In this document: positions 1,449 to 45,929 of the stretch, in pieces
Layout: each line of letters starts with the position of its first letter
Numbering within the stretch: the first letter of the stretch is position 1
DNA from: an uncultured Candidatus Saccharibacteria bacterium
GTDB taxonomy: Bacteria > Patescibacteriota > Minisyncoccia > Phycocordibacterales > PALSA-1337
DNA length: 47,589 nucleotides
NCBI GenBank assembly: GCA_964587205.1
Contig: CAZPKQ010000001.1
Coordinates: 1 to 47,589, forward strand
Direction: 5' to 3'
Notes under the pieces: model-generated
Database searches by the model: none
Seen by the model: the letters and a program-made list of their open reading frames with translations, nothing else
Told to the model about the DNA's origin: nothing
Made by a program: the position numbers and the translations under genes

Positions 1449-3263
1449 TTAAACCAACACCGCCTTGATGCGCCTTACACCAGCAGAAACTGCCTCTTCT
1501 TTTTGAATTTTGAAATGCCACTTACCTTCTGGACCAGCGAGATCAAAAGTATTTGTTACATGAGGACCACCACAAAATTCTTTTGAATAAGCAGAAGAAA
1601 TATCATTACCGGTAAAGTAAATTGAAACCTCATCGCCATATTTCTCACCGAAGAAATGCTTGGCACCAGTCTTCTCCGCTTCTGCAAATGGCAAAACAAC
1701 CTTATTCATAGGCAATTTTTGATAGATTTTCTCATTTACAATATCTTCAACCCGCTTTTTCTCTTCATCAGTCATCTTTGCATCATGAGCGAAGTCGAAG
1801 CGTAAACGCTCGGCCGTAATATTTGAGCCTTTTTGCATTACATTTGGACCAAGAACATCAAATAATGCTTGGTGAAGCAAGTGTGTAGCAGTATGATATC
1901 TGACTACCATCGCATCATTTGCATCAGCAAGACCACCTTTGAATTTTTGTTCTGCACCAGCACGAGAGAGAGCTTGGTGTTGTTCAAATTTCTTTTTGAA
2001 ATCTTCTACATCAATGGTTTTTCCCTGTTCTTTTGCAAGTTCAAGAGTTAATTCTAGAGGAAAACCATAACTTGAAAATAGAGTAAAAGCATCAGTGCCT
2101 TTTTCAAACTCTTTCATACCTTGACTGAGTGTTTCTTTGAACTTCTTTTCTTCCTTCAAAATCTCTTCTTTGATCTTTTTAGAATTTGCTGATAGTTCTG
2201 GGTAAATGTCTTTGTAAATCTGCAACAAGACATCAACAATCTCACCTATTTTGCCATTTTCATTTATACCAAGTATTTGAGCATGTCTAACAGCTCTTCG
2301 TATAAGCTTACGCAAAACATAACCACGATCAGTGTTGGACGGAACAATGCCATCTGCAATCAAAAATGATGAAGCTCGAGTATGATCGGCCAAAATCCTT
2401 GCCGATTTGAGTTGATTTGAATCAAAAACATTGAGACCGGATAGTGTCTTGACCTTTGACATAACTGGACTCAAAAGATCAGTATCATAAATGTTGTCTA
2501 CCCCTTGCAAAGTCATAGTCAACCTCTCCAAACCGGCTCCAGTATCGACTGAAGGTGCGGGTAGATTGCCGATAATCTTGCCGTCTTTCTTTTCGTATTG
2601 CATGAAGACATCGTTCCAGATTTCTACAACATCTCTCTTACTATCAGCATCGATGAACTCTTGCTTTGTTATACCCCTACCACCAAAACGATTTTTGACA
2701 TCGTAGTACATCTCAGTATCTGGTCCACATGGTCCATTATCGCCAGCTTCCCACCAGTTTGAACTCGCAGGCATGAAAAAAATCCTCTCGCCCTCGATAT
2801 TATTTTTATCAAAAACAGCCTTCCAGATAGATTCGGCTTCATTATCCCTTGGAGCATTCTCATCTCCTTCAAAAACAGTTACATATAGCCTCTTTGGATC
2901 CAGTCCCAAACCTTCCTCCTTTGAAGTTAGAAATTCGTAACTCCATTTGATAGCATCTTGTTTGAAATAATCACCCAAGGACCAGTTGCCCAACATTTCA
3001 AAAAAAGTTGCATGAGTCTTGTCTCCAATATCATCTATATCGACTGTGCGAAGACATTTTTGGGAATCAGCCAAGCGCTTACCCAAAGGATGAGCCTTGC
3101 CCAATAAATATGGCACCAATGGTTGCATTCCGGCAGTATTAAAGAGTGTTGGATTTGTAATACCCTTTTCGTCAGGAGTAATGAGCGAAGCCGAAGGAAT
3201 GATGGCATGCCCCCTTTTGCGGAAAAATTCTAGAAATTTTGATCTAATTTCGTAAGATTTCAT
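1449..3263 (-). CDS. alaS: Alanine--tRNA ligase, short form without the C-Ala domain
   Basis: 604 aa. N-terminus MKSYEIRSKFLEFFRKRGH. Editing-domain motifs HTATHLLH and CGGPHV. Ends ...VSAGVRRIKAVLV right after the editing domain. TGCTAAAAT lies 6 nt upstream of the ATG. Confidence 0.95.
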   Translation of the reverse strand: MKSYEIRSKFLEFFRKRGHAIIPSASLITPDEKGITNPTLFNTAGMQPLVPYLLGKAHPLGKRLADSQKCLRTVDIDDIGDKTHATFFEMLGNWSLGDYFKQDAIKWSYEFLTSKEEGLGLDPKRLYVTVFEGDENAPRDNEAESIWKAVFDKNNIEGERIFFMPASSNWWEAGDNGPCGPDTEMYYDVKNRFGGRGITKQEFIDADSKRDVVEIWNDVFMQYEKKDGKIIGNLPAPSVDTGAGLERLTMTLQGVDNIYDTDLLSPVMSKVKTLSGLNVFDSNQLKSARILADHTRASSFLIADGIVPSNTDRGYVLRKLIRRAVRHAQILGINENGKIGEIVDVLLQIYKDIYPELSANSKKIKEEILKEEKKFKETLSQGMKEFEKGTDAFTLFSSYGFPLELTLELAKEQGKTIDVEDFKKKFEQHQALSRAGAEQKFKGGLADANDAMVVRYHTATHLLHQALFDVLGPNVMQKGSNITAERLRFDFAHDAKMTDEEKKRVEDIVNEKIYQKLPMNKVVLPFAEAEKTGAKHFFGEKYGDEVSIYFTGNDISSAYSKEFCGGPHVTNTFDLAGPEGKWHFKIQKEEAVSAGVRRIKAVLV

Positions 3264-3356
3264 ACGGCGATTTTAGCATAAATGTCGCACGAGGGCGAAT
3301 AACTGATGCTGTGTCTTAGTTCATTGAGCTGTACTACAGATGTTTGACATATGCTC

Positions 3357-3526
3357 CCCACTACGTTCGCTTATCATACTACGTTCTCTAACCGTGAACT
3401 CCGCATGACAGGTCGCGAGCTTCGTAGGGCTAGCCTTTTGCCTTTTACCTTTTGCCCTTTAACCTGCCCTACGAAGCTTTAGCGAAGTAGGGACCTTTAC
3501 CCTCTTACCTCTTACCTTATTCACCA
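3357..3526. repeat. GC-rich composite repeat (CTACGYTCGC ... GTCGCGAGCTTCGTAGGGC ... CCTTTTRCC-type run). A second copy lies at 38316-38457.
   Basis: GTCGCGAGCTTCGTAGGGC is shared with 38333-38351. Internal inverted repeat AGCTTCGTAGGGC (3418-3430) / GCCCTACGAAGCT (3466-3478). Overlaps the last ~22 codons of pepF. Confidence 0.8.
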
Positions 3527-5294
3527 ATTCCTCATTAACCAATTTTTCAAAATGATTCACTTCCTCCTCAATCGATTTTAGACCAGATTTCCAGACCTCA
3601 TCACCTCGAATATCAAGACCGATTTCTGCCAATAGATTTTCAGGTGAATCTTTGCAACCACTACTGAATAACTGCTCGATTTTGGACCAATAATTTTTGT
3701 CTTCTTTGTATTTTCTTAGTAAGGTTTTGCTGACCAATAATCCAAAGGCATATGAATAAACATAGAAGAATCTGCGAATATGACTCCAATCGACGAAGCC
3801 ATACCTAGTTTCCTTTGCAAATTTTACACTTGGACCCATATAGGCCGACATATTTGCATTATGTAATTCTCCAATCTCTTCTTTACTCAAATATCCCTTT
3901 TCTCTAATAGTATTGTGCAAATCAAGTTCAAATTTGAAACAAGCCACCTGCCTCATAATTGTCGCTATGTTATTTGATATCCTGTCATGTAAGGCAATCA
4001 GCTTTTCTTTTTGAGAAAATTCTTTCTCTACATATTCTCTTGAATAATTTTCAAAAAATGTACTTGCCGTCTCTGCCAAGGCTGTAGAATAACCTGAATA
4101 AAGAGGTTTCTGTTTTCTTGATAAATAAGTATGGATAGCATGGCCCATTTCATGAGCAAGAGTGCTAAAAGCATAATATTTATCATTGTGATTTAGCAAA
4201 ATGAAAGTTGGTTCAACATGACCAGATCGACAATATGCACCACCTTGTTTGCCTTGTCTGGCATGGACATCGATCTGACCATTTGCCACATAATCATTTA
4301 GCAACTTTGAAAATCTTGGGTCTATTGTGTTGAATATTTCAGTAAGTTTGGTAACAGAATAGTCGAAATCAAATCTCCTATTGATCTTGCCAATATCGAC
4401 ACCTCTATCCCAATAATTTAATTTCTTTTGACCAAGCAATTTGGCTTTTAACTTGTAAAATTTGTGGGAAATCTTATATGCGTCAGTAACCGCTTTTATC
4501 AGACTTTCTATTGTTTTACTTTCATTTTCATACTCTCTTACTGTTGCATCATAAGGCTTATCGTACTTCCTCAGATTGTCGTTAATTTTTTTGTTTGTAA
4601 CGATAGCATTGATTTCTGCTTCGGCGAAATCTCCAGCTTTTTCGAGAGCTCTATAGATTTCTAAGGCTAATTTTTCTCTCCGCTTCAAATCGGTCATCTT
4701 TGAAATGATCTGACTCGCTTCATTTGCGTCATAAACCTTACCTTTCCAATTTAATTTGACTGTAGAATAGGCTTTCTTCGCCATATCTACCCACATACCG
4801 TGAGCAGGCAGTTTCTTGAGAGACATTATATTTTCCTCTGCTGGACTAAGTCGATGTTTATTTTCAAATATTCTTTTTAGGAAATAGTGGTGCGAAGCAA
4901 AGCTTTTATCATTCAATATTTCCTTTTGAACATTGCTTTCAATCTTGGACAAACCATCTCTAAAAAAGATAAGTTTCCTGTCGAAATCATTTAATCTCTC
5001 CAAGATCTTATTTTTCTTGGCTCTAATTTTATTGTCTGTAAGATTTATATCGGCAAGACAATAGTAATATGTTACAACCTTCATTGATTCCAATGTATCG
5101 AGCAAAGTGTCGTAATCCTTTAGAACCTCAAACACACTTTCTTTTGTTTTCGTAAATTCCAAAGGAACCTTGTCGTATTTGCTTACAAATTTTGTAATAG
5201 AATTTTCTATAACCTTTATATCAGATTCTATTCTTGGATCATTTATTGATTTGTAAATAATGGTTAGGTCCCATGTAGTTTTGCTTTTTTTCAT
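3459..5294 (-). CDS. pepF: M3-family oligoendopeptidase F-like metallopeptidase
   Basis: 611 aa with a HEMGH zinc motif and PepF-like length. The C-terminal tail ...KVRGKRVKVPTSLKLRRAG is encoded by the GC-rich repeat. TGCTAGAAT lies 6 nt upstream of the ATG. Confidence 0.8.
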   Translation of the reverse strand: MKKSKTTWDLTIIYKSINDPRIESDIKVIENSITKFVSKYDKVPLEFTKTKESVFEVLKDYDTLLDTLESMKVVTYYYCLADINLTDNKIRAKKNKILERLNDFDRKLIFFRDGLSKIESNVQKEILNDKSFASHHYFLKRIFENKHRLSPAEENIMSLKKLPAHGMWVDMAKKAYSTVKLNWKGKVYDANEASQIISKMTDLKRREKLALEIYRALEKAGDFAEAEINAIVTNKKINDNLRKYDKPYDATVREYENESKTIESLIKAVTDAYKISHKFYKLKAKLLGQKKLNYWDRGVDIGKINRRFDFDYSVTKLTEIFNTIDPRFSKLLNDYVANGQIDVHARQGKQGGAYCRSGHVEPTFILLNHNDKYYAFSTLAHEMGHAIHTYLSRKQKPLYSGYSTALAETASTFFENYSREYVEKEFSQKEKLIALHDRISNNIATIMRQVACFKFELDLHNTIREKGYLSKEEIGELHNANMSAYMGPSVKFAKETRYGFVDWSHIRRFFYVYSYAFGLLVSKTLLRKYKEDKNYWSKIEQLFSSGCKDSPENLLAEIGLDIRGDEVWKSGLKSIEEEVNHFEKLVNEELVNKVRGKRVKVPTSLKLRRAG

Positions 5295-5344: not shown

Positions 5345-5468
5345 CCCAAAGGAAGTTGTATACTTTCTTCGAGGCCGCAAAAATGTTGCAACATTTTTGC
5401 TTAATCCTCGAAATTTTTTGCTAAAAATTTCTGCGGAGCCTCTCAGAAAATATACAACTTCCTTTGGG
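5345..5468. repeat. Nested palindromic intergenic element
   Basis: Perfect 18-bp outer inverted repeat CCCAAAGGAAGTTGTATA (5345-5362) / TATACAACTTCCTTTGGG (5451-5468). Inner hairpins are TTCGAGG...CCTCGAA and GCAAAAATGTTGCAACATTTTTGC. Shares TTCTTCGAGGCCGCAAAAA with 39865-39883. Confidence 0.85.
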
Positions 5469-7046: not shown

Positions 7047-7892
7047 CTACTTGGCTTGTTCGATTACCACTTGAGCTTCCGTAAGGATCTTTTCATGATC
7101 TTCCATCTTGATACCTATTCTCTGAAGTGCTTCTGGATGACCGACAAGATCAAGACAAACCACAATATCCATATTTGCTAATTCCTTCTTTTGATCGCGA
7201 GTAAGAGTAGTAAGACAAGCGATCGGTTGCAAACTATTTGCAAAAATCAGATCATGCAAATTGCCCTTTTCTGGATAATTCCAACCAAGTAATTTCATTG
7301 TATTACATTCACCGTATTGGATTGCTTTGTCGGTAAATTTTGTATTTGTAACCAACCACCTTTCGGTCAACTTTCTTTTTACACCGCCGTATTCGTATTC
7401 ATTGAATTGGATATCATCGTATCTAGCTTTGACATAAAGACTTACCTTGAGATCTGATTTCAGACCAAATTCATTGTGATATTTGGCTTCTACCATTGCT
7501 AGATCCAGACCTTTCCAAGCAACTACATCTACTTCATGTTCTACACACTTACCTATCACTGTCTGATCAGTCACACTTTCATAGCCCCACATTTTGAACA
7601 ATCTAGCTACAAATTTCTCAAATGGAAAACCATCAGGACCAAGCTCAACCATCGCTCTTCTGATAGAATACTTGGCTGCAATTTTTGTGGAATGTTTGCG
7701 CAACAATTCGAAAGCACGATTGTAAATCTCCGAGGTCGTCATACCATCATGAATCTCTCTTCCGATCTCATCGACAACATCGTCTATGGTCTCATCTGTC
7801 GCACCGACACGCTTCAATGAACTAACCAACTTCTCTTCTTCAAATAATTGTTTCGTTCCGTCAGACTTTGTAATTGTAATAAGGTGATTCAT
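7047..7892 (-). CDS. ATP-cone domain fused to a PD-(D/E)xK (Mrr-like) nuclease domain
   Basis: N-terminal ITITKSDGTKQLFEEEKLVSSLKRVG...SEIYNRAFELLRK is an ATP-cone pattern. C-terminal EVDVVAW...AMVEAKY fits D...ExK. I prefer the ATG at 7892; the track start at 7907 is GTG. Confidence 0.75.
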   Translation of the reverse strand: MNHLITITKSDGTKQLFEEEKLVSSLKRVGATDETIDDVVDEIGREIHDGMTTSEIYNRAFELLRKHSTKIAAKYSIRRAMVELGPDGFPFEKFVARLFKMWGYESVTDQTVIGKCVEHEVDVVAWKGLDLAMVEAKYHNEFGLKSDLKVSLYVKARYDDIQFNEYEYGGVKRKLTERWLVTNTKFTDKAIQYGECNTMKLLGWNYPEKGNLHDLIFANSLQPIACLTTLTRDQKKELANMDIVVCLDLVGHPEALQRIGIKMEDHEKILTEAQVVIEQAK

Positions 7893-7897
7893 TCTAG

Positions 7898-7925
7898 AAT
7901 TAGCCACTAGTAATTAGCCACTAGT
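7898..7925. repeat. Perfect 14-bp tandem duplication directly upstream of the ATP-cone/nuclease gene
   Basis: AATTAGCCACTAGT at 7898-7911 and again at 7912-7925. Each unit contains the ACTAGT palindrome. Confidence 0.9.
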
Positions 7926-8039
7926 GAATAACATTATTTTACAGGAAAAATATGTAAGAGAACAGTAACTTTTCCCGTATGAAGAAGGTTAAATTCTCAC
8001 TATTGACCAAATTCAATTTTTAAGCAATTATTGTACCGG

Positions 8040-9460: not shown

Positions 9461-9586
9461 AAAGGTCTCAGCAAACATTGGGTATGAAGACCGCTTGCAG
9501 GAAATTCCTAGCAAGGAATTTCCGAAACAGAGCAAAACCTTGCAAGGTTTTGCGTGTCTTCAGACACAATGTTCGCTGAGACCTTT
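9461..9586. repeat. Nested palindromic element with a closing stem and two internal hairpins (three-way-junction-like)
   Basis: AAAGGTCTCAGCAAACATTG (9461-9480) pairs with CAATGTTCGCTGAGACCTTT (9567-9586), 19 of 20. Inner elements are GAAGAC/GTCTTC, GGAAATTCCT-AGC-AAGGAATTTCC and GCAAAACCTTGCAAGGTTTTGC. Confidence 0.85.
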
Positions 9587-28084: not shown

Positions 28085-30787
28085 CTAACCCCTCAAATAC
28101 TTTTTGAGATATTTACCAGTATAACTATTGGCATTTTTCGCCACATCCTCCGGTGTACCTCTTGCGACAATATTACCTCCTCTTTCACCACCTTCTGGAC
28201 CAATATCGACGATATAGTCTGCGTTTTTAATTAAATCCAAATTGTGTTCGATAACTACTACGGTATTACCTTTGTCTACGAGCTTAGTCAAAATTTCTAT
28301 CAACTTCTTCACATCTTCATAATGCAAACCAACGGTCGGCTCATCGAGTAGATAGATAGTCTTTTGCAAATGTGCTCGATATAGCTCAGAAGAAATCTTG
28401 ACTCTTTGCGCTTCACCACCGGAGAGAGTCGTTGCAGATTGACCTAGCTTGATATAACCCAAACCAACATCCATGAGAGTTTGTAGACGATCTTCGACCG
28501 CTGGTATATCCTTGAAAAATTCCAAACCTTCTTCGATCGTCAATTCCAATACTTCATGAATATTCTTTTTGCGATACTTGATATCCAAAGTCTCCTTCAT
28601 GAAGCGTTTTCCATTACAAACATCACAAGTGACATAGACAGTCGGCAAGAAGTGCATCTCAACGGCTATTTCCCCATTACCCTCGCAGGCTTCACAGCGA
28701 CCACCAGGACGATTGAAAGAAAATCTTCCTGCCCCCCAACCACGCGCTCGAGCTTCCGGTTCACTAGCAAAAAGATCACGAATATGAGTCCAAGCGCCAG
28801 TATATGTAGCAGGATTTGATCTTGGAGTGCGTCCGATGGGAGATTGATCTATGAGGATTACTCGACCCAAATATTCTGAACCGGTAAAAGTTTTGCAATT
28901 AACTGTTTCATTACTTCTTACTCTAGCCTCCAGTCTTTTTTGTAAATTTCTATATAAAATTTCATACATAAGAGACGATTTACCGGATCCCGACACACCA
29001 GTGATGACATTTAGACTGCCGAGAGGAATTTCGACATCCATGTTTTTTATATTAAAAACTTTGCCACCTCTAATAGAAATCTTGCCCTTCGGTTCTCTTC
29101 TCTTTTCTGGAACAGGGATTTTCTCTTCACCTCGAAGATATGCCAAGGTCAAAGATCCGGTATGATTTTTCTTTGCTTCCAATAATTCTTGCAAATAACC
29201 AGAAGCAACCACGCGCCCACCATGGACGCCCGCTCCTAGACCGATATCAACAATATAATCAGAAGCATACATAGTATCTTCATCGTGTTCGACGACTACG
29301 ATAGTATTGCCCAAATCACGAAGCCTTATAAGAGTGCTGATAAGACGATCATTGTCTCTTTGATGTAGACCGATAGTCGGTTCATCTAGGACATAGAGAG
29401 CGCCAACTAACCCTGAACCAAGTTGTGAAGCGAGACGGATTCTTTGTGCCTCACCACCAGAAAGAGTATGCGCTCGTCTATCAAGAGTTAGATATTCGAT
29501 ACCGACATTGACCATGAAATGTAATCTTTCGCTAATTTCCTTGAGAACAACTTTGGCAATCTCTTTTTCTACTGGAGTCAAATTGATATTTTGGAAATAT
29601 TCTTCGGCTTTTTCTATTGACAATGAAGTCAACTCTACAATATTTTTACCGTCAATCAAAACACTCAAAGCTTCTTTTCTTAATCTTGCACCATTACAAG
29701 TCTTACATGGATCATCTGAGAAAATAGTCTCGGTACCCAAACCATTACAAGCTTCGCAAGCACCATAGGGTGAATTGAATGAAAAGAGTCTAGGCTCAAC
29801 TTCTGGATATGAAAAACCATCGTAAGGACACATGAACTTGACCGACATCAATTCGCCCATATAGTCTTTATTTTCACTTGGATATTCGATACGGATCAAA
29901 CCATCAGCTTCGTGAATAGCTCTTTCCAAAGATTCAGAAAGTCTTTCTCTAGCATTTTCGGCTATCTTTGCTTCTTCTTCGGTTATCTTACTCTTACCAT
30001 CACCGCTTCTAAATTCACTAATGAAAATCTCATCGACCAAAACTTCTATATCGTGCTTTTTATTTTTGTCCAAAACAATCCGATCTCTAAGTCTAAATTC
30101 TTGACCGTCAATCCTGACTCTTTCATAACCCTTACCCAAAAAGTCATAAAGCATTTGGTAATATTCTCCTTTGCGACCAAGGACGACTGGAGCATAAATC
30201 TTGATTTTGGCATTGCTAATATCGACACCAAAAACTTTTTTTGCCTTGGTCGTCCTTTCATTTATAGTCTGAAGAACAGTCTTCATGATCTCTTCTTTTG
30301 AAATACGGTTTATAGGTCTATTACATATGAGACAATGTGGTTTACCGATGCGAGCATAGAGGACGCGGAGATAATCATATATCTCGGTAATAGTAGCCAC
30401 TGTTGAGCGAGGATTATTTGATCTGGATTTCTGATCGATAGAAATGGCTGGCGACAGACCTGTAATCTCATCGACATCAGGCTTCTGCATTTTGTGGAGG
30501 AACTGACGCGCGTAGGCCGAAAGAGATTCGACATATCGTCGTTGCCCCTCGGCAAAAATAGTATCAAAAGCAAGAGAAGACTTGCCGGAACCAGAAAGGC
30601 CGGTAATAGCAATCATTTTGTTGCGAGGCATTTCAACCGTGATATTTTTGAGATTGTGAGTGCGCGCGCCCTTGACCACAATCTTGTCTTCTCGAGAAAT
30701 ATTGGTAGAGGCAGAACTGCGCACAGTAGAATGTTCGCGTGTATCGGAATTCGAATTTTGATTAACTAATTTTTTGCTTGGTGACAT
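28085..30787 (-). CDS. uvrA: Excinuclease ABC subunit A
   Basis: Two ABC modules (GLSGSGKSSL, GVSGSGKSSL, LSGGEAQR twice) and zinc-finger Cys clusters. I prefer the ATG at 30787 (the track start at 30808 is TTG). TGCTATTAT lies 9 nt upstream. Confidence 0.96.
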   Translation of the reverse strand: MSPSKKLVNQNSNSDTREHSTVRSSASTNISREDKIVVKGARTHNLKNITVEMPRNKMIAITGLSGSGKSSLAFDTIFAEGQRRYVESLSAYARQFLHKMQKPDVDEITGLSPAISIDQKSRSNNPRSTVATITEIYDYLRVLYARIGKPHCLICNRPINRISKEEIMKTVLQTINERTTKAKKVFGVDISNAKIKIYAPVVLGRKGEYYQMLYDFLGKGYERVRIDGQEFRLRDRIVLDKNKKHDIEVLVDEIFISEFRSGDGKSKITEEEAKIAENARERLSESLERAIHEADGLIRIEYPSENKDYMGELMSVKFMCPYDGFSYPEVEPRLFSFNSPYGACEACNGLGTETIFSDDPCKTCNGARLRKEALSVLIDGKNIVELTSLSIEKAEEYFQNINLTPVEKEIAKVVLKEISERLHFMVNVGIEYLTLDRRAHTLSGGEAQRIRLASQLGSGLVGALYVLDEPTIGLHQRDNDRLISTLIRLRDLGNTIVVVEHDEDTMYASDYIVDIGLGAGVHGGRVVASGYLQELLEAKKNHTGSLTLAYLRGEEKIPVPEKRREPKGKISIRGGKVFNIKNMDVEIPLGSLNVITGVSGSGKSSLMYEILYRNLQKRLEARVRSNETVNCKTFTGSEYLGRVILIDQSPIGRTPRSNPATYTGAWTHIRDLFASEPEARARGWGAGRFSFNRPGGRCEACEGNGEIAVEMHFLPTVYVTCDVCNGKRFMKETLDIKYRKKNIHEVLELTIEEGLEFFKDIPAVEDRLQTLMDVGLGYIKLGQSATTLSGGEAQRVKISSELYRAHLQKTIYLLDEPTVGLHYEDVKKLIEILTKLVDKGNTVVVIEHNLDLIKNADYIVDIGPEGGERGGNIVARGTPEDVAKNANSYTGKYLKKYLRG

Positions 30788-30832
30788 AACTGGCGGATAA
30801 TAGCACAAAAAAGCGCACTTGGCGAGTTGCTT

Positions 30833-30885
30833 CCCGAAGCTTCACCTCAGGGTATTTATAAGTTTGTGAGGTTTAACCTCACAAA
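30833..30885 (-). promoter_or_regulatory. Upstream module of uvrA: 23-bp palindrome P1 plus a conserved hairpin
   Basis: P1 is TTTGTGAGGTTTAACCTCACAAA (30863-30885), with 11-bp arms around one central nt. The hairpin is CCCGAAGCTTCACCTCAGGG (30833-30852). The same pair lies upstream of clpB. Confidence 0.7.
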
Positions 30886-30926
30886 AAATAAATAAAAGAA
30901 AACCCCCCAAGCTTTCGCAAGAGGGG
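30886..30926 (-). terminator. Intrinsic terminator ending the GC-rich unit
   Basis: Minus strand reads CCCCTCTTGC-GAAA-GCTTGGGGGG (GNRA loop) followed by TTTTCTTTTATTTATTTTTT. Confidence 0.8.
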
Positions 30927-31470
30927 TAAAGGGAGGAGCCGAGGGACAGAGTCCGTAGCCGTCCTACCCTTTCGGTGCCAGTTCGCGTTGCCGTTAGGCC
31001 GATTGCGAATGTGGTACGTTGCCACCCCAATACTGTACTGTTCGAAGTAAGGGGTGGCAGGTGGCTGGAGTGACAAGCGATGGTAAACGAGGGCGGGCAG
31101 CCCTAGCTCATTTACCAAGTTGTGCGTGTCACTCCCGCCGAGCCGGGCTGGTCAGCCGCTCGCCGGGGTCGTCGAGGCGAGGGTGCCGCCGGAGGTCGGG
31201 GTCGTCGTCGAGAATTTCGCTTTACCAGTGATGATCATCTGGCGATTCATCGGCGGTCCATTCATGTTGGCTCCTTGGGGGTCCTTAAACCCCCTTTGTA
31301 TGAGACGACCCCATTCGGGTGTCGTCTCGGTGTTGTTTGGCCCCACCGTCGTGGCGGGACCGGGTTCGTTGCACATTGGCCACGAGTTATCGCTTTTCCT
31401 TGCCCACTGGGCAGGTCGGCATTCCTCATCGGTCAACGTGTCTGGTAGTACTAGACACCTTTCATATTTT
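30927..31470 (-). other. GC-rich, helix-dense transcription unit of unknown nature (structured RNA and/or micro-protein gene)
   Basis: TTGACA lies upstream at 31472-31477 on the minus strand, and a terminator closes the unit at 30886-30926. Clear helices are listed in the findings. All six frames are open because of GC. Confidence 0.4.
31152..31265 (-). CDS. Possible 37-aa Thr/Ser/Pro/Gly-rich peptide
   Basis: ATG at 31265 with AAGGAG (31271-31276) 5 nt upstream. Peptide is MNGPPMNRQMIITGKAKFSTTTPTSGGTLASTTPASG. The frame is also open upstream, so the length is uncertain. Confidence 0.35.
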   Translation of the reverse strand: MNGPPMNRQMIITGKAKFSTTTPTSGGTLASTTPASG

Positions 31471-31598
31471 TTGTCAAGTGTTTGAATAGACCCAATGTAA
31501 TTGATCAAACTTAATAGAAAATACAAAATGATTATTAAGATAAATTACCTATATTTATAGCCATAAAATAAGTTGGGTATCATAAATCCGCACCTAAC

Positions 31599-31621
31599 TT
31601 TGCGAGGTTAAACCTCGCAAA
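31599..31621. promoter_or_regulatory. Palindrome P2
   Basis: TTTGCGAGGTTAAACCTCGCAAA, perfect 11+1+11. Lies between the clpB stop and the GC-rich unit. Confidence 0.7.
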
Positions 31622-31641
31622 AAATATATAAAATAAAACCC

Positions 31642-34323
31642 TTAGACTAGACCTCGAGAGAAATCTGGTACAACAACAGGACTTTCACCTTTTGAGCGTT
31701 TTTTGATGTCAAATGTAAACTTGTCATTTCGATAATCAACGGTAATCCTACCTCCCTTCGAGACATCTTGGGCGATCAGATGATTTGCCACTGGTGTCAG
31801 GATCTTGGTCTGTATCAATCTACGCAAAGGTCTTGCTCCGTATTGAGGATTGTAACCTTCTTTTGCCAAATATTCGTATACGGAAGGAGTGACTACAAGA
31901 TCGATTTGTTTGTCAGCCAATCTTCGGATGATTTCACCAACCTGTATCTCAACAATTTTCTTGATTGATTCAACATTCAAAATATCAAAGATAATTATGT
32001 CATCTATACGATTTAGAAATTCTGGACGGAAATAATCCTTGAGAGCAGAATTAATCTTGCTCTTTGCTTCATCATAATTGTCTCGATCACGATTGTCAGT
32101 ATTTGCAGCAAAACCCAATTTTTCCATTCTTTGGATATGCTGAGCGCCGATATTGGAAGTCATGATAATAACCGTATTTCGGAAATTGACTGTTCTGCCT
32201 TTGGAATCTGTAAGTTTTCCATTATCAAGAACCTGAAGGAGAATATTGAAAACTTCAGGATGAGCTTTTTCTATTTCATCAAAAAGAATGACAGAATAAG
32301 GTCGATGACGAACCATTTCGGTCAAACCACCTGATTCGTCAAATCCGACATAGCCTGGAGGAGCACCGATCAATTTTGATACGGAATGCTTTTCCATAAA
32401 TTCGGACATATCGACTCTGATCAAAGCTTTTTCATCATTGAATAGAAATTCTGCCAAAGCTTTTGTAAGTTCGGTCTTACCGACTCCTGTAGGACCAAGG
32501 AAAATGAATGAACCAATAGGGCGATTTGGATCTGCGATACCAGCTCTCGAACGTCTGATTGTATCTGCGATCTTCTGGACAGCTTCATTTTGACCGACTA
32601 CCCTCTTTTCCAATTCGGCTTCCATCCTTGTAAGCTTGATCGCTTCTGACTCAAGCATCCTTGTGACAGGTATACCTGTCCAACGCGAGACCACATCCGC
32701 TATGTCTTCTGATGTTATCTCTTCTTTTAGAATTCTCCTCGACGCTTGTAGTTTCCTCAAGCGCTTGTTTTTGGTCTCTAACTCTTTTTCTAAACTAGGT
32801 ATTTTGCCATAGCGAATCTCAGCTGCTTTTGCTAGGTCTGACCTCGCTTCTGCAGCTTCTCCTTCTATCCTTATCGCTTCCAACTCTTTTTTGAGTTTCT
32901 TGATACTTGCTATGGTTTCCTTTTCATTTTTCCATTTCAATTCGAGTTCGCTAGTACCTTCCTTTAGGTCTGCGATCTCTTTTTCGATCGCTTGCATTCT
33001 TGCCTTAGCGACTTTGTCACTTTCTTTCTTCAATGCTTCACGCTCAATCTCCAAACGCATAATCTTGCGTCTGGTCTCTTCAAGCTGTGGTGGCATATTT
33101 TCTAGAGATATACGCAATGAAGAAGAGGCTTCATCGATAAGATCGACTACCTTGTCAGGCAAGAATCTGTCGGCAATATAACGACTTGCAAGATTGACAG
33201 CCGAAACAATCGCATCGTCTGTAATCCTGACACCATGATAAAGCTCGTATTTTTCTTTGAGACCACGCAAGATAGCTATAGCATCCTCGACGCTTGGTTC
33301 ATTGACATGGACTGGTTGGAATCTTCTTGTAAGCGCTGGGTCCTTCTCAATATGCTTTTGATATTCTTTGAGTGTAGTCGCTCCGATTGCTCGCAACTCA
33401 CCTCGAGCCAAAGCTGGTTTTAGCATATTTGAGGCATCCATAGAACCTTCCGATGCACCAGCACCGACAAGAGTATGGATCTCATCTATAAATAAAATAA
33501 TCTTGCCTTCTGATTTTTCTACTTCTTTCAAAATGTTTTTGAGTCTCTCTTCGAACTCTCCGCGATATTTTGTCCCCGCAATAAGTGAACCGAGATCAAG
33601 CGAAACAAGCTCTTTATCCTTCAATGATTCTGGCACATCACCTTGAGCCATACGGATCGCCAAACCTTCGACAATAGCAGTCTTACCAACACCAGCTTCA
33701 CCGATAAGGATCGGATTGTTCTTTGTGCGTCTTGATAGTATCTGAATAATGCGCATGATTTCAGAATCACGACCGATCACTGGATCGAGTTTATTTTCGT
33801 GAGCGAGCTTAGTAAGCGATCGAGCATATTTAAATAATGTTCGGAATTTTTTTGGTTCGGCACCTTTTGCATTTGGATTGGCTTTGATCTCATCGATAAC
33901 CTTCGAAACCGCTTGTCTCTCGATCTTGAAACGGGCAAGAATGTCTTTTGCACTACAAGGAACATCGAATATCGACAAGAAAATGTGTTCGGTAGATATA
34001 AATTCATCTTTGAAACTTGAAGCGATCTTGACCGAATTGTCCAAAATCTGAGCTAGATCTGGAGTGAGATAGATCTGGTATGAAGGTGATAAGACATTGG
34101 AACCTTCGGGTGATTCGATATTTTCCAAGACAACATCGATAAGCATCGGAGTATCTATCTCCAACTTGTCCAAAATAGAAGCAACCATGCTTTCCTCCTG
34201 CAATACCAAAGCACAAAGCAAATGAATAGGATTTACATGGTTTTGTCCCCTTTCTATGGCCAATTCATGGGCTCTCCTAAGCGCTTCTTTGGCTTTTGTA
34301 GTCAATTTATTTAATGGAGGCAT
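31642..34323 (-). CDS. clpB: ATP-dependent chaperone ClpB
   Basis: 893 aa with two AAA+ modules ([30 protein letters not shown]) and a long middle coiled coil. TAGTAT lies 6 nt upstream of the ATG. Confidence 0.96.
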
Positions 34324-34363
34324 AACAACATACTAATACAGAAATATAGCCATAGTCAATCTA

Positions 34364-34411
34364 CCCCGAGGTTTCACCTCAGGTGTTCTATTGCGAGGTT
34401 AAACCTCGCAA
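34364..34411 (-). promoter_or_regulatory. Upstream module of clpB: palindrome P3 plus a conserved hairpin
   Basis: P3 is TTGCGAGGTTAAACCTCGCAA (34391-34411). The hairpin is CCCCGAGGTTTCACCTCAGG (34364-34383). The hairpin ends 4 nt before TTGACT (34354-34359). Confidence 0.7.
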
Positions 34412-34413
34412 AC

Positions 34414-35649
34414 TTAGCTAAAAGAAATTTTCTTCATCTCAACCTTCCCAGTCCTACGATCTTTGACTTCATATGAATCCTCCTTTAGAGTTTTGTCGCT
34501 TATGACATAGCGCACTGGAATACCAATAAGGTCTGAATCGCCAAATTTCTCACCAGCACTGCAATCCCTATCATCATACAAAACCTCGATATTTTGCGAC
34601 GATAATCTGGCATACATTTCATCGGCTGCTTTTTTGACTTCGCCATTTTCATTGAATAAAGCTACAAGATGTACAGCAAATGGAGCGATATTGTCAGGCC
34701 AGACCAAGCCCTTTTCGTCAGACCAAATCTCTGCCACTGTACCCATGAGGCGTGCAGGACCGATACCATAACTTCCCATTATTACCGGTTTATTTTTGCC
34801 GTCTTGATCTTTGAAATTTAGACCGATCGCATCTGAAAATTTTGTCCCGAGACTAAAGATATTTCCTACTTCAACGGCTTTGCGTTCGACAAGATCTTCC
34901 CTCTTTATACCCAAATCTTGCAATACTTCATCTTTCAAAACCTCTTTATTTACGGCAATCTTCTTGCCTTCATGTACATATATAGTATCTTCTCCAGCAT
35001 CAGTCACCGCTTGAAATTCATGAGAATATTTGGAAAATGAACCTCCAGCAGCAAATGTCACATAAGTCTCAGCTCCCAAACCACAACGATCAAAAATCCT
35101 AATGTAGGCCTTCTTAGCCTTTTCATAAAAATCTTGATGAGAGGCTTCGTCAACATTGAAAGAATACAAGTCTTTCATGATGAACTCTCTTGAACGCATA
35201 ATCCCCGACTTGGCTCGTTCTTCATTACGAAACTTTGTTTGAAATTGATAGACAGATCTAGGTAAATCTCTAAATGATCTGATGTGTTCTTGCATCAGTG
35301 CGGTCAATGGCTCTTCGTGAGTGAAGGCGAGACCGAGCTCAGTGCCATTTTTGAGTTTTGTGCGAAACCAATTGTCTACCACCTCTTCACTCCATCTACC
35401 ACTCTTCTCCCAATTTGTCTTTTCTTGTAATGCAGTAAGGAAGACTTCGACACCGCCGATAGCATTCATCTCTTCTCTTATAATGGCAATGATTTTGTTT
35501 AGGGTGCGAAGACCTAGAGGAAGCATAGAATAGACTCCTGCCATTTCTTTGTGAATAAAACCAGCTCGAATAAGTAATTGAGCATTCTTCGCCACCTCGT
35601 CTTTTGGCCCTTCGCGTCTCGTCTTGGTAAATAATTGACTTTGTTTCAT
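34414..35649 (-). CDS. proS: Proline--tRNA ligase, short form without the INS editing domain
   Basis: 411 aa. MKQSQLFTKTRREGPKDEVAKNAQLLIRAGFIHKEMAGVYSMLPLG... matches the bacterial ProRS N-terminus. Confidence 0.9.
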   Translation of the reverse strand: MKQSQLFTKTRREGPKDEVAKNAQLLIRAGFIHKEMAGVYSMLPLGLRTLNKIIAIIREEMNAIGGVEVFLTALQEKTNWEKSGRWSEEVVDNWFRTKLKNGTELGLAFTHEEPLTALMQEHIRSFRDLPRSVYQFQTKFRNEERAKSGIMRSREFIMKDLYSFNVDEASHQDFYEKAKKAYIRIFDRCGLGAETYVTFAAGGSFSKYSHEFQAVTDAGEDTIYVHEGKKIAVNKEVLKDEVLQDLGIKREDLVERKAVEVGNIFSLGTKFSDAIGLNFKDQDGKNKPVIMGSYGIGPARLMGTVAEIWSDEKGLVWPDNIAPFAVHLVALFNENGEVKKAADEMYARLSSQNIEVLYDDRDCSAGEKFGDSDLIGIPVRYVISDKTLKEDSYEVKDRRTGKVEMKKISFS

Positions 35650-45906: not shown

Positions 45907-45929
45907 TTTGCGAGGTTAAACCTCACAAA
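45907..45929. promoter_or_regulatory. Palindrome P4 in the kinase/def divergent intergenic region
   Basis: TTTGCGAGGTTAAACCTCACAAA, with one arm mismatch. Confidence 0.65.

Follow-up and report, generated by a model that had tools for sequence, protein, structure and literature searches.

The locus studied here raises the question of why one 23-bp palindrome should stand beside uvrA, clpB, a GC-rich unit between these two genes and the divergent def region within a single stretch of 47,589 nucleotides (the window) from an uncultured Candidatus Saccharibacteria bacterium (assembly GCA_964587205.1). A preliminary description of this DNA had proposed a stress-regulon operator shared by uvrA and clpB, with a structural element resembling repetitive extragenic palindromes (REPs) as a fallback. 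It is the fallback that our data favour, through the repeat status of the palindrome, its linkage to a transposase gene and the comparison with relatives, and we put the probability that the palindrome is a REP-type repeat, partnered by a single-copy Y1/HUH transposase of the REP-associated tyrosine transposase (RAYT) kind, at about 0.82.

A 23-bp palindrome is dispersed through the genome

The window is contig C1 of an assembly of 626 kb in 72 contigs (39.7% G+C); the ClpB proteins nearest to its own come from metagenome-assembled genomes (MAGs) of Candidatus Saccharibacteria, and the public sequencing runs that contain the stretch are wastewater, activated-sludge and freshwater metagenomes. 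Within the window the palindrome TTTG-YK-AGGTT-W-AACCT-MR-CAAA occurs four times against none expected from dinucleotide shuffles, and a search with the pattern TTTGCGAGGTTNAACCTCGCAAA at up to three mismatches returns exactly these four copies (starting at 30863, 31599, 34390 and 45907; Table 1) and nothing in the shuffles. Both the places and the arm symmetries previously given for them hold, two copies having perfect 11-bp arms, one perfect 10-bp arms and one a single mismatch, while the consensus with CG arms does not describe copy 1, which carries TG in both arms (TG/CA, not CG/CG).

The palindrome is a repeat family of the whole genome, with 32 copies of the half-site TTTG-YK-AGGTT arrangement on 16 contigs, or about one per 20 kb, when two mismatches are allowed, and 29 copies of the strict pattern. 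The most frequent 16-mers of the entire assembly, at 16 occurrences each, derive from it and also flank the transposase gene described below. Placement is strongly extragenic: 27 of the 32 copies lie fully outside genes in a genome whose intergenic share is ∼13%, four overlap the last codons of an open reading frame (ORF) and one lies inside rsmE. Many begin 1–4 nt 3′ of a stop codon or overlap it (proS, cysS, ileS, lysS, a pilin-like gene and a gene on contig C58), at least eight directly follow a separate GC-hairpin and T-run terminator and precede the next promoter, and there is a modest association with GC-rich islands (7 of 32 versus 2.9 expected, P 0.027). Because several contigs terminate at or beside a palindrome, and the sister-species sequence has a copy just past the end of contig C9, the repeat breaks the assembly, which accounts for the division of the MAG into contigs at palindromes and makes 32 a lower bound.

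Pairs of palindromes 27–107 bp apart are found on contigs C27, C38, C6, C58 and C25, with opposite central bases in the doublets on C27 and C38. The 27 stand-alone 23-bp copies are without conserved flanks, and a conserved insertion target adjoining the palindrome was looked for and not found. As single-stranded DNA the palindrome folds upon itself, with a loop of 3 nt on a stem of 10 bp; perfect copies reach –9.3 to –10.6 kcal/mol (z –4 to –7) and mismatched ones only –3.3 kcal/mol. Of the stem, the inner part, GAGGT/ACCTC, does not vary and the outer part is species-specific; within the half-site, positions 2–4 and 7–11 are invariant. In copies with one TG and one CG arm the central base lies on the same side relative to the TG arm in 10 cases to 0, a link that points to descent from master copies by copying.

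A second hairpin 5′ of uvrA and of clpB, also reported previously, is present at both genes on the minus strand (Table 1). About ten relatives of the one at clpB, CCTGAGGTGAAACCTCGGG, occur in the genome, and five lie no more than 25 nt from a 23-bp palindrome (five composite loci); since the clpB hairpin has the same core as the palindromes of related genomes it belongs to the same superfamily. Judged by this shared core, the second hairpin is probably an older REP subfamily, and its composites with the palindrome form an arrangement like that of bacterial interspersed mosaic elements (BIMEs).

The palindrome flanks a single-copy Y1/HUH transposase gene

Outside the window, contig C27 carries a single-copy ORF of 205 aa (7336–7953, minus strand) that is flanked by five palindromes, two on its 3′ side (7321 and 7405) and three on its 5′ side (7955, 8054 and 8083), one of the latter 1 nt before the ATG. 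A single-copy Y1/HUH gene flanked by abundant palindromes combines the defining features of a RAYT locus (Nunvar, PMC2817692; Bertels, PMC5581495). The protein matches Pfam Y1_Tnp (E 2.5e-8), and its only NCBIfam match with E <0.01 is the equivalog model REP_Tyr_transpos (NF047646, E 1e-10). The HUH motif residues H70 and H72, and Y135 within YIHLNP, are invariant across eight aligned homologues. With an AlphaFold model of the protein, the top Foldseek match in the PDB is 4er8 (E 3e-4), which is E. coli TnpA-REP bound to a REP hairpin, followed by IS200/IS605 TnpA structures including 2xm3, 2vjv and 2a6o. Sequence searches of the PDB are weak, a single sequence giving nothing relevant and a profile giving 2xm3 and 4er8 at E ∼0.15. 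The protein is longer than the RAYTs with which it is compared below and has a conserved C-terminal YEYSSFKDYLG region. By analogy with these relatives we infer that it is a Y1/HUH tyrosine transposase of the RAYT kind, with a catalytic role that is predicted from motifs and fold.

Palindrome and transposase gene co-occur and co-diverge in relatives

Homologues of the C27 gene were found in 26 of 61 related genomes, and the core GAGGTNNNACCTC co-occurs with them: genomes that have the gene show a median count of 9 and those that lack it a median of 0 (Mann-Whitney p 1.5e-6), and within the genus the medians are 20 versus 0. The two also diverge together. At 7 of 11 same-genus loci the homologue, single-copy in most genus members, is flanked on both sides by a palindrome of its own with AGGT-N3-ACCT (GGT-N3-ACC in one), for example GCCGAGGT-GCA-ACCTCGGC, GGGCGAGGT-NNN-ACCTCGCCC and TGTAGAGGTCTGACCTCTACA. 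Across the phylum, the protein family is present in 93 of 301 Patescibacteria genomes sampled, some of which hold 4–8 homologues each, and at no fewer than 9 of 20 sampled loci a palindrome specific to the genome stands on either side of the gene; a class-level relative (L208) has GTAG-TAAGGTTTAACCTTACT. The breadth of the family, often with palindromes of its own, suggests that hairpin repeats with such a nuclease are common even in the most streamlined genomes.

Two relatives allow the copies themselves to be compared. G006 is the closest relative with the gene order proS-clpB-uvrA (protein identity 80% for ProS, 88% for ClpB and 87% for UvrA) and holds 51 dispersed core copies in several sub-families. 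The sister species (MAG CAZYBH01) is 80–96% identical in nucleotides; orthologous palindromes differ from those here only at degenerate positions, the central base is flipped in two of them, and one doublet here is a singlet there, with a clean 29-bp indel. The copy inside a gene is a full REP, in frame in an rsmE-like methyltransferase gene (contig C16, L088, 7330–7352) just 5′ of the GPEGGW motif. Its core encodes ARLNL here and ARSDL in G006 (L225), where the gene has two further REPs; more distant relatives have none.

Palindromes bound cassettes that differ between strains

Palindromes are also present or absent between close strains, together with the DNA they bound. The clpB-uvrA region of the sister species is represented by metagenome contigs from two runs, X7 and X8, with ∼96% identity to the window. 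These contigs join 30827 to 31595 through 29 bases, a variant of the second hairpin. Their order is uvrA, hairpin, one palindrome, clpB; the GC-rich unit and copy 1 are missing, as they are in G006, and copy 2 is the sole palindrome retained between the two genes. In the window, copies 1 and 2, each taken with the A-rich flank to its right, are direct repeats of ∼45 nt that bracket the GC-rich unit, which is single-copy in the genome and, in X6, diverged and fast-evolving. This unit behaves as a cassette that is present or absent between strains. The X6 contig leaves the window after 34412, continues for 746 bases and re-enters at 34365, so that the 48-bp module of hairpin and palindrome upstream of clpB is duplicated around an insert, which has no similarity to the GC-rich unit or to the C13 cassette at 80–85% likeness. 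At the uvrB locus on contig C13, X6 joins 2989 to 3865 and is without an 849-bp cassette and one palindrome; the cassette comprises a GC-rich ORF of 155 aa that has no Pfam match, its own promoter, a GGAGG Shine-Dalgarno sequence and a terminator. On the same contig (L087, 2968–4272), three palindromes bound two GC-rich units upstream of uvrB, of which this 849-bp cassette is one.

Each of these three strain indels thus comprises one cassette and one palindrome copy, and the cassettes are not multi-copy in the source genome. With only two states to compare, each difference could reflect an insertion or a deletion between direct copies; the ancestral clpB-uvrA spacer, to judge from the G006 sequence, may have held the hairpin only. 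Searches of the window, 12 other contigs, the GC-rich unit and a conserved unit on contig C24 against Rfam at gathering and E-value thresholds gave only tRNAs and chance matches.

Because three independent strain indels share this exact form and the GC-rich unit is absent in G006, the palindromes could be more than selfish repeats and serve as junction sites of a scattered cassette system, a reading that we regard as possible and hold only tentatively. The RAYT-like HUH enzyme, or recombination promoted by the hairpins, would insert or remove small units beside a resident palindrome. These units would be 0.25–0.85 kb long and mostly GC-rich, with their own promoter, a Shine-Dalgarno-led ORF or structured RNA, and a terminator, and every event would add or remove one palindrome copy. 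If this is true, ultra-small epibiont genomes would have an integron-like or ‘peel-and-paste’ route for the sampling of foreign genes. In either case, the palindrome-bounded indels offer a testable handle on the gain and loss of small genes in these genomes, and the palindromes are usable as natural strain markers.

Orthologous promoters lack the palindrome

Non-conservation upstream of uvrA and clpB orthologues, which the preliminary description had itself named as speaking against an operator, is what we find in G006. There the clpB promoter, TTGACT-N18-TAGTAT-N6-ATG, is identical to that of the window in hexamers and spacing, without palindrome or hairpin upstream, and the spacer after proS holds 29 unrelated bases where the window has copy 3 and the hairpin. 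The genes clpB and uvrA are adjacent in G006, parted only by a hairpin, GGGCGAGGTGAAACCTCGCC, at the place of the window's second hairpin, and the –10/ATG layout of uvrA is kept (tgTTATCAT-N9-ATG). The def promoter (ctctgtTATAGT) is likewise conserved and the palindrome upstream of it absent. No palindrome was found upstream of clpB in four other Saccharibacteria loci (59–76% protein identity). The strict pattern, with 29 copies here, has none in 24 same-genus genomes and 16 other families of the order, and with two mismatches allowed these 40 relatives have 0–1 matches each versus 32 here.

Nor does the position of the palindrome relative to promoters hold from gene to gene, as its centre lies near –84 for uvrA, –78 for clpB, –29 for uvrB, –28 for an SLT transglycosylase gene and about +7 for a 443-aa gene on contig C58, measured from start sites inferred from the –10 boxes. 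The genes that flank palindromes include uvrA, uvrB, recO, comEC, dprA, seven aminoacyl-tRNA synthetase genes, a tRNA gene, typA, pilin-like genes and a convergent pair. The marking of clpB, as previously described, stands for copy 3, which lies upstream of the gene, and fails for copy 2, which lies downstream of its stop codon. The promoter strings given for uvrA and clpB are exactly as found here, and the stated lack of a match to CIRCE, CtsR boxes and LexA boxes is borne out: CIRCE/HrcA, the LexA SOS box and the CtsR box resemble it in being a palindrome upstream of clpB and uvrA, and differ in that there is no sequence likeness, its position is unconserved and its copies are dispersed as a repeat family. 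The proposed search of the genome and relatives did place uvrA and uvrB among the facing genes, as a post hoc observation; the regulon, in contrast, does not survive it, as the motif lacks conservation upstream of the orthologues and copies also stand at 3′ ends and between convergent genes. An attractive but mistaken assignment of uvrA and clpB to a regulon is thereby set aside for a lineage that is uncultivated.

Alternative explanations

If the palindrome were an operator, a dimeric transcription factor would bind it as double-stranded DNA and repress or activate the leaderless promoters of a repair, competence and chaperone regulon. The half-site could be read in this way, with its invariant positions and with positions 5–6 varying without compensation between the arms, and the gene 5′ ends that face a palindrome are those of uvrA, uvrB, recO, comEC, dprA and clpB, among others. 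Directly next to the extended –10 box of uvrB and of the SLT transglycosylase gene, the palindrome takes the place of the –35 region, and at the 443-aa gene on C58 it sits between the –10 box and the ATG. Set against this are the G006 orthologues of clpB, uvrA and def, which lack the palindrome despite their conserved promoters, the missing motif in 40 relatives, the scatter of positions from about –84 to +7, and a differing copy number in the sister species. Copies moreover lie 3′ of clpB, between convergent genes (C54), in rsmE, by the seven aminoacyl-tRNA synthetase genes and around the transposase gene, and the 10-to-0 link between central base and arm points to copying and not to independent evolution of sites. 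The support for a protein operator that was first drawn from the independence of positions 5–6 is outweighed by this link and by the comparative data, and we consider an operator very improbable. Slightly less improbable, although still unlikely, is that the palindromes are the ends or solo ends of an autonomous element of the IS200/IS605 type, akin to the miniatures of palindrome-associated transposable elements (PATEs), and that the C27 gene is a selfish transposase. The Y1 fold and motifs are the same, hairpins stand at both gene ends and bound the cassette indels, and the 4–8 homologues in some Patescibacteria would suit such an element. However, this genome and most members of the genus have one copy of the gene, the hairpin is identical on both sides instead of forming distinct left and right ends, stand-alone 23-bp copies without conserved flanks make up 27 of the total, and the RAYT model is the only NCBIfam match. 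Excision of the IS608 type removes both hairpins, whereas the empty sites here retain one hairpin copy.

Selection of RNA-level hairpins at gene ends, as terminators or 3′-end stabilisers unrelated to the transposase, would account for the many copies at stop codons and for the stable stem of perfect copies (–9 to –11 kcal/mol). In most copies, however, the hairpin is not followed by a T-run on either strand, at least eight loci have the palindrome downstream of a separate terminator, the central base occurs in both orientations with respect to the gene and the stem is without compensatory change. Such selection would also leave unexplained the link to the Y1 gene across genomes and the species-specific sequence, and of the alternatives we find this one the least credible. 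DNA-uptake sequences, parS sites, CRISPR repeats and CRP-like TGTGA-N-TCACA sites were considered and dropped on copy number, spacing (N9 not N6), irregular spacing and non-conservation.

Several observations weigh against a REP/RAYT system. The C27 protein scores 41.6 bits against the curated NF047646 cut-off of 80, and its AlphaFold model is of moderate confidence (predicted local distance difference test, pLDDT, 62). Arm positions 5–6 vary independently (10 matching pairs seen versus 9.6 expected in a covariation test), so that in about one third of the copies the stem is interrupted by an internal 2x2 mismatch and its folding is weak (∼–3 kcal/mol), and this uncompensated pattern would also fit protein recognition of double-stranded half-sites. 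Beside the oriented copies there is neither a conserved GTAG nor a conserved CGTC head, and no flank position exceeds 0.35 bit. The copy number is modest in absolute terms, and repair and competence genes (uvrA, uvrB, recO, comEC and dprA) appear enriched among the facing genes, an enrichment recognised post hoc. Given the missing head, the uncompensated arms and the sub-threshold score, we file the palindrome and its partner as a REP/RAYT-like system of a new lineage and not with the E. coli or Pseudomonas groups.

Proposed mechanism and comparison with known systems

By analogy with E. coli TnpA-REP and the IS200/IS605 TnpA enzymes, the C27 protein would bind the palindrome as a folded hairpin in single-stranded DNA, for instance at a replication fork, and would cut and rejoin the DNA beside it, whereby copies could spread, duplicate, invert and be deleted. 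Copies would persist where they do little harm, in spacers after stop codons or terminators and upstream of the next promoter. It is this survival in harmless spacers that would make uvrA, clpB, def and the GC-rich unit appear ‘marked’. Effects on transcription, such as insulation, 3′-end stabilisation or promoter occlusion at uvrB, would be by-products and not a regulon.

We compared the system with REP/BIME and RAYT (TnpA-REP, YafM) of E. coli and with the REP doublets (REPINs) and RAYTs of Pseudomonas and Stenotrophomonas (PMC2817692; PMC3333891; PMC3479197; PMC5581495). In common with these, no oligomers of the genome are more abundant than those of the short extragenic palindromes, which also occur as doublets; palindromes stand on either side of a single-copy Y1/HUH gene, often right at its start and stop codons, and a species-specific repeat changes along with the protein, inheritance within the lineage looking vertical. 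The host differs, being a member of the Saccharibacteria (Patescibacteria) with a genome of ∼0.65 Mb. In the two large REP superfamilies one end of the repeat carries a conserved tetranucleotide head, GTAG or CGTC (Di Nocera 2013, PMC3733652; Nunvar 2010, PMC2817692), whereas here no such head accompanies the near-perfect 23-bp palindrome with its 3-nt loop and GGT-N3-ACC core. The protein is longer, through its C-terminal YEYSSFKDYLG region, and below the curated RAYT cut-off, and there are tens of copies, not hundreds, which bracket strain-variable cassettes. Nearly all work on REP/RAYT systems concerns Proteobacteria, and this one is newly seen in Patescibacteria; a full-text search of an incomplete literature library gave no paper linking RAYTs or REPs to Saccharibacteria, Patescibacteria or the candidate phyla radiation.

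Other mobile or palindromic systems share parts of this picture. The IS200/IS605 elements (IS608, ISDra2) and PATEs are alike in their Y1 transposase, their subterminal single-strand hairpins with cargo between the two, and the matching fold; they are unlike it in that here the gene is single-copy, the hairpins are identical on both sides and empty sites keep a hairpin, and no tnpB was seen beside the C27 gene, without a systematic search for tnpB. Rickettsia palindromic elements, which are not known to have a dedicated transposase, can sit in frame in protein-coding genes without breaking them, as the palindrome does in rsmE, although at 100–150 bp they are far longer. The attC sites of integrons are imperfect palindromes that are recognised as folded single strands and bound small mobile cassettes, and the indels found here, of one cassette and one site, resemble them. 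Integrons, however, rely on a tyrosine recombinase, IntI, and on an attI platform that is fixed and has a common promoter, whereas the cassettes here are scattered, with promoters and terminators of their own, and the candidate enzyme is an HUH nuclease.

Features of the window and further observations

The coordinates of the features in the window are collected in Table 1. The ORF of the GC-rich unit (37 codons) is Thr/Ser/Pro-rich and Shine-Dalgarno-led, MNGPPMNRQMIITGKAKFSTTTPTSGGTLASTTPASG, and the native genes nearby look leaderless.

Table 1. Palindromes, hairpins, promoters and associated features in the window
Feature	Position	Strand	Remarks
Predicted uvrA promoter and start	30785–30825	minus	TCGCCA-N17-TGCTATTAT-N9-ATG; consensus match only; –35 TCGCCA 30820–30825, extended –10 TGCTATTAT 30797–30805, ATG 30785–30787
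Second hairpin CCTGAGGTGAAGCTTCGGG	30833–30851	minus	GAGGT-N3-ACCTC core; weakly folding as single-stranded DNA; probably a decayed member of a second REP subfamily with this core
Palindrome copy 1, TTTGTGAGGTT-T-AACCTCACAAA	30863–30885		3′ of the T-run terminator of the GC-rich unit; centre ∼84 nt 5′ of predicted uvrA start site
GC-rich unit	30886–31598	minus	Between copies 1 and 2; own promoter (TTGACA-N17-TAGTAC), ∼170-nt structured leader, AAGGAG-N5-ATG, 37-codon ORF, hairpin and T-run terminator near 30900–30930
Palindrome copy 2, perfect consensus	31599–31621		20 nt after clpB stop codon (31642–31644)
Predicted leaderless clpB promoter and start	34321–34359	minus	TTGACT-N18-TAGTAT-N6-ATG; TTGACT 34354–34359, TAGTAT 34330–34335, ATG 34321–34323
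Second hairpin CCTGAGGTGAAACCTCGGG	34365–34383	minus	Same subfamily as 30833–30851; ends 4 nt before clpB –35; –6 kcal/mol as single-stranded DNA
Palindrome copy 3	34390–34412		1 nt after proS-like stop codon; centre ∼78 nt 5′ of leaderless clpB start
proS-like gene	34414–35649		Class II aminoacyl-tRNA synthetase gene
Palindrome copy 4	45907–45929		Divergent spacer between 356-aa ORF and def-fmt

The last codons of clpB (…SRGLV*, 31639–31658) overlap a decayed REP-like core, GAGGTCTAGTCTAAG; ClpB of G006 ends …EASR* and has no such core. Two other perfect palindromes recur in intergenic spacers of the genome with conserved flanks, GCAAAACCTTGCAAGGTTTTGC in four copies, which reuses the REP half-site word TTGCAAGGTT, and GCAAAAATGTTGCAACATTTTTGC in three; their sites in the window are 9532–9553 and 5377–5400. 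On contig C24 (L090, 6380–7160) a non-coding stretch is 98–99% identical to the sister species, above the level of the flanking genes, and contains a GC-rich unit of ∼330 nt that has a strong terminator and, 11 nt beyond a palindrome, the promoter TTGACA-N17-TATACT; the stretch has the RNase P-like strings GGAGGAAAC and AAATAGGG and no Rfam match even at E 1. An isoleucyl-tRNA synthetase-like ORF of 1200 aa on contig C3 (L081, 4119–7721) has a His_Phos_1 (histidine-phosphatase) domain at 546–729. Finally, contigs C19, C36, C44, C65, C71 and C72 exceed 47% G+C throughout, unlike the rest of the bin, and may be mis-binned DNA of another organism.

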